From a virus: DNA of 64,000 nucleotides. Below are positions 10,325 to 47,003 of this stretch, in pieces (position 1 is the stretch's first letter; the number at the start of each line of letters is the position of its first letter). The notes beneath the pieces were generated by a model. That model made no database searches, had not been told where the DNA came from, and saw nothing but the letters and a program-made list of their open reading frames with translations. Made by a program: the position numbers and the translations under genes. The DNA lies in IMG/VR virus record IMGVR_UViG_3300042554_001073. The stretch is one strand, 5' to 3'.

Positions 10325-10344
10325 TGGAGTTATAAAGAACTCAG

Positions 10345-10418
10345 AGCCCCCCATCGGACTCGAACCGATGACCGCCGCTTTACAAAAGCGGTGCTCTATC
10401 CAACTGAGCTAGAGAGGC
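10345..10418 (-). tRNA. trnT: tRNA-Thr(UGU)
   Basis: GCCTCTC acceptor; D-arm AGCTCAGTTGGATAGAGC; anticodon arm CCGCT-TTTGTAA-AGCGG; T-arm ATCGG-TTCGAGT-CCGAT; no encoded CCA. Confidence 0.95.
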
Positions 10419-10690: not shown

Positions 10691-10734
10691 AGTAATATTC
10701 CTATTACTTTTGAATATTTAGAGGATAAACCTCA

Positions 10735-10819
10735 TAGGGACGGGGGGACTTGAACCCCCACGGGCGTTATGCCCAACAGATTTTAAGTCTGGTGTGTCTA
10801 CCACTTCCACCACATCCCC
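10735..10819 (-). tRNA. trnL: tRNA-Leu(UAA)
   Basis: GGGGATG acceptor; anticodon arm CCAGA-CTTAAAA-TCTGT; long variable arm GGGCATAACGCCC; T-arm GGGGG-TTCAAGT-CCCCC. Confidence 0.95.
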
Positions 10820-10827
10820 AAAAAAAC

Positions 10828-43254: not shown

Positions 43255-44334
43255 TCAACCGATTGCTGGAGCAGTGAGAGCAACAGGAGTTGACTCAGCA
43301 GCAGCAAGGTCAAGAGGGAAATTGTGTGCGTTCCTTTCGTGCATTACCTCCATCCCAAGACCAGCACGATTCAGAACATCTGCCCAGGTGTTGAGCACAC
43401 GACCTTGTGAGTCGATGATGGACTGGTTGAAGTTGAAACCGTTGAGGTTGAATGCCATGGTGCTAACACCAAGAGCAGTGAACCAGATGCCAACTACAGG
43501 CCAAGCAGCAAGGAAGAAGTGGAGTGAACGAGAGTTGTTGAACGATGCGTATTGGAAGATAAGACGACCAAAGTAACCGTGAGCAGCAACAATGTTATAA
43601 GTCTCTTCTTCTTGACCGAACTTGTAACCATAATTCTGCGACTCGTTCTCAGTGGTTTCACGAACCAGAGAAGAAGTTACCAGCGAACCGTGCATCGCAC
43701 TAAACAGAGAACCACCGAAGACACCAGCAACACCAAGCATATGGAAGGGGTGCATCAGGATGTTGTGCTCTGCCTGGAACACAAGCATATAGTTAAAAGT
43801 ACCAGAGATACCAAGAGGCATCGCATCAGAGAAAGAACCTTGACCGAAAGGATAGACCAGGAACACTGCGCTAGCAGCAGCAACAGGTGCGCTGTAAGCA
43901 ACGCAGATCCAAGGACGCATACCTAGACGGTAAGAAAGTTCCCACTCACGTCCCATGTAAGCGTAGATACCAATCAGGAAGTGAAACACAACCAATTGGA
44001 AAGGTCCACCATTGTAGAGCCACTCATCCAGAGAAGCAGCTTCCCAGATAGGGTAAAAGTGCAGTCCAATAGCATTGGATGAAGGAATAACAGCACCAGA
44101 GATGATGTTGTTTCCGTACATTAGAGAACCAGCAACTGGTTCACGGATGCCGTCGATGTCCACAGGAGGAGCAGCGACGAAAGCAACAATAAAACAAATG
44201 GTGGCAGCAAGTAGGCAAGGAATCATCAGAGTTCCAAACCAGCCGACATAAAGACGGTTGTTTGTTGATGTCACCCACTGGGCAAACTGTTCCCAAGTAT
44301 TCGATTGTCGTTGTTGTGAAAGTGTAGCAGTCAT
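43255..44334 (-). CDS. psbA: Photosystem II D1 protein (intron-less, E130 form)
   Basis: NRLYVGWFG...[17 protein letters not shown]...[13 protein letters not shown]; uninterrupted ORF. Confidence 0.99.
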
Positions 44335-44803: not shown

Positions 44804-44970
44804 AATCAGCACTTCTCATTGGACTCGTGATTATGAGACTCATAACCAATGAGGGATTTTTTAATGAAAATAGAAGACCACAACCAAAACGACAACCAGC
44901 AGAAGTCATTAGATTCATTAGAAGACCTGCCAAAAGAGGTAGGAAAAAATCGTGGTTCTATTCTGAATAA
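44800..44970 (+). CDS. Hypothetical protein (56 aa; hydrophobic N-terminus, basic tail)
   Basis: Hand-translated MKSALLIGLVIMRLITNEGFFNENRRPQPKRQPAEVIRFIRRPAKRGRKKSWFYSE; ATGA overlap with the upstream stop. Confidence 0.55.
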   Translation: MKSALLIGLVIMRLITNEGFFNENRRPQPKRQPAEVIRFIRRPAKRGRKKSWFYSE

Positions 44971-45190
44971 ACTTATCTTTTTTGTCTGTTGTTCCGTAAT
45001 TGGATTTGTTGGTATTAACTTTATTGCTTGTAACTTTATGGTTCCTGGAACCATCAATAGAGCAAATGTAAAAGGAGAATTAAAAAACCCTCCTCCTTTA
45101 GATTGTAAAGAATCCGAAAGAAGAGGATATGAAACTTTACTGACAATCTTAACTACAGTAATTGCGTTAAGAACCAAGTTAGAAGATTAA
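44849..45190 (+). CDS. Putative membrane protein
   Basis: TM segment LIFFVCCSVIGFVGINFIAC and hydrophobic C-terminus LLTILTTVIAL; start uncertain. Confidence 0.55.
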   Translation: MRDFLMKIEDHNQNDNQQKSLDSLEDLPKEVGKNRGSILNKLIFFVCCSVIGFVGINFIACNFMVPGTINRANVKGELKNPPPLDCKESERRGYETLLTILTTVIALRTKLED

Positions 45191-45678
45191 GAACTCCAAA
45201 GTTTACCCTCAGCAGTTCTTCTACGAGCAAGTCCTTTCTCTACATTAGTTCCAGGATTGCGATAAAGATATAAAGCATCAGGAACTTTTGACCATTCCTT
45301 ATTTTTTAGGCATTTAGTAATAGTATTAAAGCCAGAACCACCGTAAAAACTGGCACCAAGATTATAAGCGAAGCTGAGCAGAGCGCCTCTTTGTCCATCT
45401 GTCATTTCTCCCCAATAAGGAATTCTCTGAAGTGATGGAAGAAATCTTTGCTCAAGATCAAACATTAATAGTTTGTCAGCATAATCCTGTGTAATCTTTC
45501 TTCCAAGTTTAAATGGTTGACCATTAAAATCTTTAGTGCTACCCCACCCAATAGTGATAGGAAGTCCACCAGTCAATGGGTCAGGATAAGCATTTAAGTG
45601 ACATCCCTCAAACTCCTTAATTAAATCAACACCACATTGAGGGATTTTAGATTGTGGCGTCGATTCTACTTTTTTACG
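45187..45678 (-). CDS. GH24 (phage lysozyme) domain with no start codon of its own
   Basis: The open frame extends upstream of the track's TTG (45576): LIKEFEGCHLNAYPDPLTGGLPITIGWG holds the catalytic E-x8-D and T; also ALLSFAYNLG and GLARRRTAEG. The frame opens after a TGA at 45681-45679 and has no ATG/GTG/TTG before the Glu. Confidence 0.85.
   Translation of the reverse strand, partial: RKKVESTPQSKIPQCGVDLIKEFEGCHLNAYPDPLTGGLPITIGWGSTKDFNGQPFKLGRKITQDYADKLLMFDLEQRFLPSLQRIPYWGEMTDGQRGALLSFAYNLGASFYGGSGFNTITKCLKNKEWSKVPDALYLYRNPGTNVEKGLARRRTAEGKLWSS
45603..45675 (-). other. -1 programmed ribosomal frameshift signal (A_AAA_AAG plus H-type pseudoknot)
   Basis: Heptamer 45675-45669; 5-nt spacer; S1 TCGACGCCACA/TGTGGTGTTGA (11 bp, 2 G-U); S2 ATCCCTCAA/TTGAGGGAT (9 bp, perfect). 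Confidence 0.82.
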
Positions 45679-46364
45679 TCAAAGATTCTTCCCCAACCAT
45701 CATTGCCTTTGGGGCACCATCTACGTGCTAATTCACTACGTTTATAAACAGCACCTTTACCATTATTTACAGATCCAGTATAACCATCATTCAACGAACC
45801 ATAAGGATCATTGACAACATAATCGCCTGATGGGGTCTTACCAATCACAACTACCATATGCCCACCTGTGGGGTTAGATAGAGGACCGCGATGAAGAATA
45901 CCAATAACAACAGGTCTACCAGCGGCAAGCTCTCTATCAAGATCAGCAAAAGAAAGGCTATAAGAAAAACTGGATTTAATACCGTATGACGCAAGAACCT
46001 TGGTCTGAACCAAGTGATCAGTTGTGTCACCGATTGAGAAAACTTTTTGTACATAGGCGTCATCGCCCTTAGGTCCTTTTAGTGTACCAGGTTTGAAATA
46101 CTCAAGACACATAGCACAAGCAGAAGAGTTACAGGTTCTGTTAGCGTCTCTGTAATTATCTGTCTGTGGATAAAAAGGAACTTGTAAAATACTTGATTGA
46201 GGTTTGTCCTCTTTTGTTCTAAAAATTCTTACCCAATTAGCATCATCCTGTACTAATTCTTGAGCTTTCAGAAGCAAATCTTTTTCAAGTTGCTCTACTG
46301 CCACAACGTGTTTTGGATTTTTTTCGTCGTAGAATTTAAAGAAGTTATGAAGATCTATGAGCAT
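45666..46364 (-). CDS. Peptidase C39-like protein (putative endolysin N-terminal part)
   Basis: LQVPFYPQTDNY...TCNSSACAM (Cys), GGHMVVVIG (His), VNDPYG (Asp); start moved to ATG 46364 because a late promoter lies at 46388-46394. Confidence 0.8.
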   Translation of the reverse strand: MLIDLHNFFKFYDEKNPKHVVAVEQLEKDLLLKAQELVQDDANWVRIFRTKEDKPQSSILQVPFYPQTDNYRDANRTCNSSACAMCLEYFKPGTLKGPKGDDAYVQKVFSIGDTTDHLVQTKVLASYGIKSSFSYSLSFADLDRELAAGRPVVIGILHRGPLSNPTGGHMVVVIGKTPSGDYVVNDPYGSLNDGYTGSVNNGKGAVYKRSELARRWCPKGNDGWGRIFDVKK

Positions 46365-46387
46365 TATACTATCCAAACCCTGCACTA

Positions 46388-46394
46388 TATTTAT
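46388..46394 (-). promoter_or_regulatory. T4-type late promoter of the lysis locus
   Basis: ATAAATA immediately after the peroxiredoxin terminator. Confidence 0.7.
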
Positions 46395-46395
46395 T

Positions 46396-46423
46396 AAAAA
46401 AAGGAGGGTTTTATCCCTCCTTT
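46396..46423 (-). terminator. Intrinsic terminator
   Basis: AAGGAGGG-ATAAAA-CCCTCCTT-TTTTT. Confidence 0.85.
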
Positions 46424-46425
46424 AC

Positions 46426-46953
46426 TCATACTGTTACTGTTTCACGAACAGTAGATTTCACATATTCTAGAACATTTTCCGGAGTAGTCTGCTCATAAGG
46501 GTCGGTGGTGGCATTGTCCCGTTGCCCATCTTCAACGAATAGTTTTTCGATGATTCCGTTATCCACGACCGCAGCATAACGCCAAGACCTATCACCGAAA
46601 CCAAGGTTGGACTTATTGACAAGCATTCCCATAGAACGTGTGAAGTAAGCATTGCCATCTGGAATGAGTTGGACATTCTTGATGTTTTGATCTTGTGACC
46701 AAGCATTCATCACAAACCCATCATTAACAGAGATGCAGTAAATAGCGTCGATGCCACTACCAATAAAGTCTTCATATTTCTCTTCGAATCCAGGTAGCTG
46801 ATAGGCACTGCAAGTAGGAGTGAAAGCACCAGGCAGGCTAAAAATGACAACACGCTTCCCATCGAAAAGTTCAGATGATGTACGATTTACAAATTCTCCG
46901 TTCTCACGAAACACAAATTCTACTTGGGGAACTTGATATCCTTCTTTACGCAT
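46426..46953 (-). CDS. Peroxiredoxin (Prx5/type II-like)
   Basis: FSLPGAFTPTCS...SVNDGFVMNAW...DGN..FT..MGM...RSWRYA; start ATG 46953 with GGAGG RBS. Confidence 0.9.
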   Translation of the reverse strand: MRKEGYQVPQVEFVFRENGEFVNRTSSELFDGKRVVIFSLPGAFTPTCSAYQLPGFEEKYEDFIGSGIDAIYCISVNDGFVMNAWSQDQNIKNVQLIPDGNAYFTRSMGMLVNKSNLGFGDRSWRYAAVVDNGIIEKLFVEDGQRDNATTDPYEQTTPENVLEYVKSTVRETVTV

Positions 46954-47003
46954 AGTAACCTCCATATTAGTATTTTTCCTTTTAAAAATATTGAACATAA
47001 TTA

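Follow-up and report, generated by a model that had tools for sequence, protein, structure and literature searches.

A probable programmed -1 ribosomal frameshift between the peptidase and lysozyme frames of a cyanophage lysin gene

Insertion sequences of the IS3 family (IS911, IS150 and IS3) encode a zero-frame product, OrfA, that ends soon after the slippery heptamer A_AAA_AAG; a catalytic domain without a start codon follows in the -1 frame and is added by frameshifting to give OrfAB, and a hairpin or pseudoknot lies downstream. In phages, a conserved -1 frameshift is known in the late gene for the tail assembly chaperone (lambda G/GT and its analogues), where the heptamer is G_GGA_AAG and there is usually no 3' structure. 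Endolysin genes with two products are known as well, the second product being made by internal initiation, as in Lys170, CTP1L and Ms6 LysA. Here we describe a locus in a 64,000-nucleotide (nt) stretch of the IMG/VR virus record IMGVR_UViG_3300042554_001073 (the whole of this stretch is referred to as the window) which is very probably a cassette for programmed -1 ribosomal frameshifting, situated in a cyanophage lysin gene of presumed late expression and joining a C39-like peptidase to a GH24 lysozyme. The mechanism, of the dnaX or IS3 type, is known; the gene class is new.

The window shares with the IS3 family the heptamer A_AAA_AAG, a (here predicted) fusion that adds a start-less catalytic domain, and a hairpin or pseudoknot just downstream, but the IS3 genes serve transposition and their second open reading frame (ORF) usually overlaps the first to a greater extent. 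As in lambda G/GT, a late phage gene would give rise to a short protein and a C-terminally extended one; the lambda system differs in its heptamer and its usual lack of 3' structure, and its products are structural chaperones rather than enzymes. The internal-initiation endolysins resemble our reading of the window in that a single lysin gene gives rise to two polypeptides of different length with a domain in common. Their short form, however, is C-terminal and arises from an internal start, whereas that of the window would be N-terminal and arise by termination, with the long form produced by recoding.

Escherichia coli dnaX (PMC5009743) has, like the window, A_AAA_AAG and a 3' stem-loop a few nt downstream; its heptamer is decoded by a sole tRNA-Lys(UUU), as that of the window would be in hosts such as those checked here, and it makes two products in a set ratio from one gene, as we propose for the window from its sequence; IS3-type frameshifting is mentioned in general terms in the same paper. 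The shifted product is the shorter one in dnaX and would be the longer one in the window, and dnaX encodes the replication clamp loader rather than a cell-wall hydrolase. An upstream Shine-Dalgarno-like stimulator is also used by dnaX; in the window, GGGG(A/T)AG lies 12-14 nt 5' of the heptamer, but it is fixed by the invariant GWGR motif that it encodes, and its conservation is therefore uninformative as to such a role.

A first-pass annotation of this DNA, made from the sequence alone, had known of no description of a frameshift-controlled endolysin in cyanophages, and we likewise found no published account of such a case in the literature searched on cyanophage, endolysin and S-PM2 frameshifting. 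The nearest report concerns Alteromonas virus vB_AspP-H4/4, for whose genes 39/40 a -1 frameshift from the endolysin gene into an internal virion protein gene has been predicted (PMC5658483). There, as in the window, the predicted shift takes place at a slippery sequence starting in the endolysin gene; the downstream frame, however, encodes an internal virion protein and not a second wall-degrading enzyme, and the case is a one-line prediction in a podovirus genome announcement, with no comparative support reported (PMC5658483).

The lysis genes of T4-like cyanophages are poorly understood, and in two model phages, S-PM2 and S-CAM7, the 'putative lysin' is annotated as a fragment that lacks the catalytic Glu. 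If the frameshift is real, this fragment would be explained, dozens of genomes and metagenome contigs would need re-annotation, and cell-wall hydrolases would join the gene classes under -1 frameshifting. As a case it is both clean and widespread, and nature has supplied controls in which the two enzymes are fused in frame, split or in reversed order; these could address why a phage needs a set ratio of peptidase to peptidase-muramidase. Another use of the cassette could be as a small test system for frameshifting in cyanobacteria, where we found none described.

The junction between peptidase and lysozyme

Coordinates of the lysin gene and of the elements directly 5' of it refer to the minus strand, and positions in the window are counted from its first letter. 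The source phage is a T4-like cyanophage whose nearest isolates are members of the Kyanoviridae, among them S-SRM01 and S-PM2 (about 72% DNA identity). The zero-frame ORF (45666-46364; 232 amino acids (aa) plus stop) encodes an N-terminal domain of about 55 aa (IDLHNFFKFYDEKNPKH...W..I.R; 46200-46364), for which we found no Pfam family match, followed by a Peptidase_C39_2 cysteine peptidase domain (PF13529; E = 7e-14, 53 bits against a cut-off of 24) spanning residues 60-188 from the ATG. This half corresponds to positions 1-235 of phrog_3617, and C77/C82, H168 and D185 are invariant in an alignment of relatives (alignment A2). The -1 frame (45187-45678; stop at 45189-45187) encodes a linker and a GH24 domain (Phage_lysozyme, PF00959; E = 4e-21, 76 bits against a cut-off of 22.3) with its catalytic Glu codon at 45609-45607. 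It corresponds to phrog_3617 positions 242-405 and conserves the motif EFEG...YPD...TIGWG, with E, D and T at the catalytic positions.

An AlphaFold model of a natural fusion of the two enzymes (locus L070, described below) has two domains and a disordered linker; its mean predicted local distance difference test score is a moderate 67, and we used it only for fold assignment. Foldseek matched the lysozyme of this model to GH24 endolysins and P22/T4 lysozyme, and the peptidase, more weakly, to the C39-like peptidase 3erv, Alr0975 and staphopain, pointing to a papain-like/C39-like fold. On the basis of hidden Markov model (HMM) score, Cys and His residues and modelled fold, the upstream product is predicted to be a Peptidase_C39_2 enzyme; the HMM score, the catalytic positions and a modelled T4/P22-lysozyme fold likewise assign the -1 frame to GH24 (Phage_lysozyme).

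The peptidase frame ends ...GGA AGA ATC TTT GAC GTA AAA AAG TAG. The slippery heptamer A_AAA_AAG (45669-45675) stands in the X_XXY_YYZ register of the zero frame, and the zero-frame stop TAG (45666-45668) follows directly 3' of it. In the -1 frame, the last stop 5' of the heptamer is a TGA (45679-45681); from 45678, 3 nt ahead of the heptamer, this frame is free of stops as far as 45189-45187. Since the TGA sets the 5' limit, a shift could take place only within 10 nt, which include the in-register heptamer. Between the TGA and the catalytic Glu codon, the -1 frame of the window has no ATG, GTG or TTG; the first such codon, a TTG at 45576, would give a Glu-less fragment. The predicted products are a peptidase of 232 aa and a fusion of 392 aa, joined as ..FDVKK-VESTPQSK.. 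(junction-spanning stretch ..IFDVKKVESTPQSK..). The first-pass annotation had given the same peptidase end, the same -1 frame and upstream TGA, the same lack of start codons and the same product sizes, and our reading of the locus agreed with it base by base.

Under the proposed mechanism, ribosomes would translate the N-terminal domain and the C39-like peptidase and reach A_AAA_AAG with both the P site and the A site occupied by tRNA-Lys(UUU), where they would be held up by a 14-base-pair (bp) helix just downstream, possibly part of an H-type pseudoknot in the window's lineage. Most would terminate at the adjacent TAG and release the peptidase, and a fraction would slip back by one base and continue through the short linker into the GH24 lysozyme to produce the two-enzyme protein. 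In the window phage and dozens of relatives, the lysozyme is most likely made only by ribosomes that slip back in this way at the end of the peptidase gene. This reading is carried by the sequence anatomy, by conservation and covariation at the junction, by the homology of both halves to known enzyme families and by the single-ORF fusion in relatives; from these we infer ribosomal slippage and its efficiency, late timing and an endolysin role of the products. The two products would be made in a fixed ratio and presumably have separate roles. They may act as endolysin or as virion-associated hydrolases; the late-promoter motif upstream (see below) fits either.

We compared about 190 related loci, drawn from eight annotated phage records and three IMG/VR scans, and classed them by the frame relation of peptidase and lysozyme; the 78 distinct junctions with the lysozyme in the -1 frame are the base of the junction counts. 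An in-frame slippery heptamer was found in the short overlap of 65 of the 78 (A_AAA_AAG in 62, U_UUU_UUU in two and A_AAA_AAA in one). Among these 65, the stop adjoins the heptamer in 46 and there is no start codon at the stop in 53; in 29 junctions, the window included, there is none at all before the Glu. All 12 heptamer-less junctions are of the ATGA type: an ATG or GTG overlaps the stop of the peptidase, and the lysozyme therefore has its own start. Because every heptamer-less junction has a start and every start-less junction has a heptamer, the lack of a start and the presence of a heptamer coincide without exception. The window's arrangement is not due to chance, since it is seen in full in the 53 distinct start-less junctions, which come from independent assemblies.

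The Lys-Lys codons are AAA AAG in all 62 of the A_AAA_AAG junctions, and the codon 5' of them is GCA, GTA, ACA or GAA, encoding Ala, Val, Thr or Glu and always ending in A. As AAA AAG is invariant and the final A of the preceding codon is kept while its amino acid varies, selection at the junction acts, judging from these comparisons, on the nucleotides and not on the protein. S-PM2 shows the same arrangement as the window (GCA AAA AAG TAA). The first-pass annotation had expected standard gene prediction to yield a Glu-less lysozyme here, and such is the case in S-PM2, with a 72-aa 'putative lysin', and in S-CAM7, with a 90-aa 'lysin', both being fragments in keeping with the start-less -1 arrangement.

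Within the phage collection, the C39-like peptidase family was found in cyanophages only. The 106 records represent myo-, podo- and siphoviruses, S-CBP1-4, S-CBS1/2 and PSS2 among them, and are often labelled simply 'lysozyme'.

In E. coli, A_AAA_AAG is especially shift-prone because the sole tRNA-Lys(UUU) reads AAG weakly (PMC5009743). Two picocyanobacterial genomes were checked on the host side, a complete marine Synechococcus with 43 tRNAs and a freshwater Cyanobium draft with 39; in both, tRNA-Lys(UUU) is the sole tRNA-Lys, and we found no tRNA-Lys(CUU). Nor does the 64-kb window contain a tRNA-Lys gene, its tRNA genes being those for tRNA-Thr(UGU) and tRNA-Leu(UAA) only (10344-10418 and 10734-10820, minus strand). 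In the two genomes checked, the tRNA set is thus of the kind expected to favour slippage on AAG.

Structure downstream of the heptamer

The candidate stimulatory helix, S1 (45623-45666), has 14 bp, formed by 45666-45653 with 45636-45623. The first-pass annotation had given its 11-bp core (45663-45653 with 45636-45626, including two G-U pairs), which the minimum-free-energy fold of the 70 nt 3' of the heptamer extends to 14 bp, with an energy of -18 kcal/mol and a z of -2.3 relative to dinucleotide-shuffled sequences. In an alignment of 17 sequences of the window's hairpin family, 99% of cells in S1 are paired and four pairs show compensatory double changes. An uninterrupted helix of 7-16 bp is found 2-8 nt after the heptamer in all 53 start-less junctions, so that heptamer and structure are both present in every homolog of this type. 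Their arms have 42 different sequences and belong to at least three families unrelated in sequence: that of the window (arms GAATCGACGCCACA / TGTGGTGTTGATTT), a second one (GCCAACTAA / TTAGTTGGC) and that of S-PM2 (CTCTACTCC / GGAGTAGAG); the hairpin of S-CAM7 has the arms GTAGAACC / GGTTCTAC. By these comparisons S1 is conserved as a structure and not as a sequence, as would be expected of a stimulatory element.

We also compared the folding energy (mean dG and z) of the 60 nt after the heptamer between junction classes. Start-less junctions have a mean dG of -16.1 kcal/mol (z = -3.5). The corresponding values are -9.7 kcal/mol (z = -0.9) for junctions with both a heptamer and an own start, -6.7 kcal/mol (z = -0.3) for heptamer-less junctions and -11.8 kcal/mol (z = -0.7) for in-frame fusions without an A run. 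Predicted downstream structure is therefore specific to the start-less junctions, which would need it, and the control classes are without it.

The first-pass annotation had further proposed that S1 forms an H-type pseudoknot with a second stem, S2. The covariation of S1 and the 9 perfect bp of S2 (45603-45645, minus strand; 45645-45637 in the S1 loop with 45611-45603 in the codons for F-E-G-C) are compatible with this proposal, but the changes observed in S2 are compatible with wobble pairing only and the pairing is specific to one lineage. We consider a pseudoknot in the window's lineage plausible, at about even odds; the frameshift conclusion does not depend on it. The alternative, to which we give slightly less than an even chance, is that the 14-bp hairpin alone is the stimulator and that the complementarity of S2 is a by-product of peptide motifs, the -1 frameshift being unchanged. 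Both arms of S2 lie in codons constrained by the motifs K-I-P-Q and F-E-G-C, and in the 17-sequence alignment S2 shows no compensatory double change and has four unpaired cells. Outside the window's hairpin lineage, loop-to-downstream pairing has a z of about 0 (families 2 and 3 and S-CAM7, except for L030 and L104), and yet these families keep the start-less arrangement. On the other hand, S2 is 97% paired in the same alignment, all 13 single-side changes retain a wobble pair, and the loop-to-downstream duplex of the lineage reaches -9 to -15.5 kcal/mol, with z of -1.4 to -4.2 against shuffled loops in 18 of the 19 members tested (the exception being L051). All 17 aligned members use GAG for the catalytic Glu, where GAA predominates in other lineages, and third-codon positions in the 3' arm of S2 vary in 4 of 51 cells, compared with 23 of 85 in flanking unpaired third positions.

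Natural fusions and the evolution of the junction

In a marine clade (ACG-2014f and IMG/VR relatives), the N-terminal domain, peptidase, linker and lysozyme form a single ORF of about 405 aa, and phrog_3617 covers both enzyme halves colinearly. These fusions have the same N-terminal domain, C39-like peptidase and GH24 lysozyme as the window and a homologous linker (..FDAKVE.. against ..FDVKK-VE..), but they need no recoding and yield the fusion only. In S-CREM1 the same two enzymes are likewise encoded by one ORF, in reversed order. Judging from these single-ORF relatives, the peptidase-lysozyme fusion is a real protein type. The marine linker reads GCG AAA GTA GAA where the window has GTA AAA AAG TAG AA, that is, with two extra A's; a 2-nt expansion might have produced heptamer, stop and -1 offset all at once.

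A7 in place of A6 is found in two lineages of the frameshift clade (L070/L071/L151/L152, at about 2690-2720, and L087/L136; one of the two was recovered in four separate assemblies). In both, ..FD[VI]KKVE.. is read in frame, which is the predicted trans-frame junction, and the hairpin is retained. These A7 fusions therefore carry the junction that the frameshift reading predicts, and this reading, which the first-pass annotation had put forward, is further supported by the in-frame heptamer, the start-less -1 lysozyme and the covarying helix. A -1 slip on the A_AAA_AAA of the A7 lineages would reach a stop after about 12 codons; products of the same two size classes might be made in these phages, but with the fusion as the default.

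None of the in-frame loci of the marine single-ORF type has a stable structure, and none has a slippery heptamer except in the ACG-2014f group. The idea that the ACG-2014f in-frame gene keeps A_AAA_AAG and a hairpin in order to make a truncated peptidase by slipping was rejected: the heptamer occurs in a single tight clade only, and sequences such as GAA AAG AAG or CAG AAG stand in its place in other in-frame loci, whose structure is no stronger than background.

A different shift site is found in S-CAM7 (L006 1290-1345), L089 and L090, in which GT_T_TTT_TTT is followed after 6 nt by a stop and, at a distance of 5 nt, by a 13-bp hairpin. In S-CAM7 the U run falls in the codons for ..VFF.., a few codons 5' of the position of A_AAA_AAG. 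In the peptidase tree the S-CAM7 group is nested within the marine in-frame clade (support of 100 in the Shimodaira-Hasegawa-like approximate likelihood ratio test). Because of this nesting and the different site, the frameshift arrangement must have arisen at least twice. The hairpin families are scattered over the peptidase tree, and near-identical peptidases can be followed by different linker, hairpin and lysozyme modules (e.g. L033 and L039). This indicates that modules have been exchanged at the junction with retention of the cassette, and the junction behaves like a point of recombination.

DSL-LC02 and DSL-LC03 encode a separate lysozyme of 223 aa (L004:1440-2111, L007:1383-2051) which starts with a peptidase-type N-terminal domain of about 50 aa (MARIDLHNFFKFYDEKNPNH...). 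The N-terminal domain of the window is 56% identical (E = 1e-17) to the N-terminus of this stand-alone lysozyme (L004:1440-2108), and we found no BLAST similarity between the peptidase N-terminal domain and the N-extension of L083-type lysozymes. As the stand-alone lysozyme carries its own copy, these comparisons suggest that the domain serves both enzymes, and that frameshifting is one way to supply it to the lysozyme.

Several junctions that have a heptamer as well as an ATGA-type start, including L001, L029, L052 and L060, have gained an ATG or GTG over the stop. Close to this group are L162 and L155, in which the heptamer is already altered (GCA GCA AAG; A_AAA_AAA). The group with both a heptamer and an own start looks like a cassette in decay after the lysozyme gained its own start.

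A broader idea, which we consider doubtful, is that recoding at the junction is an evolvable dial for lysin stoichiometry, given at least two origins, retention through module swapping and a one-base flip by which A7 phages would make the fusion by default and the truncated form by slipping. Under this idea the short and long forms might assemble through their shared N-terminal domain into a mixed-subunit lysin, and the efficiency of frameshifting, and so the timing or strength of lysis, might respond to the translational state of the host (tRNA-Lys modification, nutrient status).

Alternative explanations and the surrounding genes

Several observations weigh against programmed frameshifting, and the counts need to be interpreted cautiously, as related sequences are phylogenetically non-independent and the counts therefore overstate the number of independent events. 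The heptamer alone is no proof of frameshifting, because 12 junctions have it together with an ATGA-type start and weak downstream structure, and because relatives of these are in the course of losing it (L162, L155). In the window's lineage, the helix of the minimum-free-energy fold begins as close as 2 nt to the heptamer, which makes the effective spacer uncertain. Moreover, the linkers of 24 of the 53 start-less junctions contain a GTG or TTG in frame, at which weak independent initiation might take place. This last point bears on the explanation that there are two separate proteins, the lysozyme being started at a non-canonical codon, at a linker GTG or TTG, or by termination-reinitiation, and the heptamer being a mere Lys-Lys tail. 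The ATGA-overlap relatives clearly do make a stand-alone lysozyme, but the other 29 junctions, including that of the window, have no ATG, GTG or TTG before the Glu, and many of the linker TTG and GTG codons lie only about five codons before it and encode a conserved Leu or Val. Separate initiation would also leave unexplained the invariance of AAA AAG, the NNA codon before it and the restriction of structure to junctions without a start, and we consider it very unlikely. That the frame difference lies in an A run, and that A7 versions exist, might raise the suspicion of a homopolymer error in sequencing or assembly, or of a decaying pseudogene. Sequencing error is excluded because A6 followed by a stop is found in 102 loci from many independent metagenome assemblies, as well as in two isolates, S-PM2 and S-SRM01; the catalytic residues are retained in both domains, which also score strongly in HMM searches, and the structure and heptamer appear to be under selection, so that an error or pseudogene is effectively refuted.

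The frame could instead be changed before translation, by RNA polymerase adding an A in the A6 run, or a U in the U8 run of S-CAM7, so that the fusion would be read in frame from the altered mRNA with no shift by the ribosome. The shift sites are homopolymer runs, the U8 of S-CAM7 being nearer to the slippage type, and the genomic A7 variants show that the state with one additional A is viable. However, transcriptional slippage sites typically comprise homopolymers of at least 9 nt, the hairpins that stimulate slippage lie upstream in the nascent RNA, and A6 is short for efficient slippage, as judged from the cases in E. coli and Thermus. The window has A6 followed by G, and so lacks both the long homopolymer and the upstream hairpin; its conserved structure lies downstream, at the distance of a ribosomal stimulator. 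That the heptamer A_AAA_AAG ends in G and keeps a strict register is characteristic of slippage by tandem tRNAs and not by the polymerase. Although dnaX of bacteria with two tRNA-Lys species uses transcriptional slippage (PMC5009743), the hosts checked here have the sole tRNA-Lys(UUU). We therefore regard slippage by the polymerase as unlikely, and ribosomal frameshifting as the better account of the junction.

The late expression assumed for the lysin gene rests on the T4-type late promoter motif AATAAATA (46388-46395), read from the sequence 23 nt before the peptidase ATG, where the first-pass annotation had also placed a late promoter. Among 97 distinct sequences upstream of the gene in relatives, 36 have the motif NATAAATA 21-25 nt 5' of the ATG, and AATAAATA is probably active as a late promoter. 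Directly 5' of it lies an intrinsic-terminator-like hairpin (46396-46423; GGAGGG-ATAAAA-CCCTCC followed by T7), which ends the peroxiredoxin gene (46426-46998). The other neighbouring gene is psbA (43255-44334).

On the plus strand, an ORF of 113 aa (44849-45190) converges on the lysozyme stop. It has one hydrophobic segment (ILNKLIFFVCCSVIGFVGINFIACNFMV) and a conserved C-terminal ..NPPPLDCKESERRGYETLL.., and gave no PHROG match. A highly conserved counterpart is found at the same place in S-PM2 (L002 1772-2122, minus), and the strand opposite this ORF is likewise open over the same stretch in both the window phage and S-PM2. The ORF may encode a membrane or lysis-associated protein beside the lysin.

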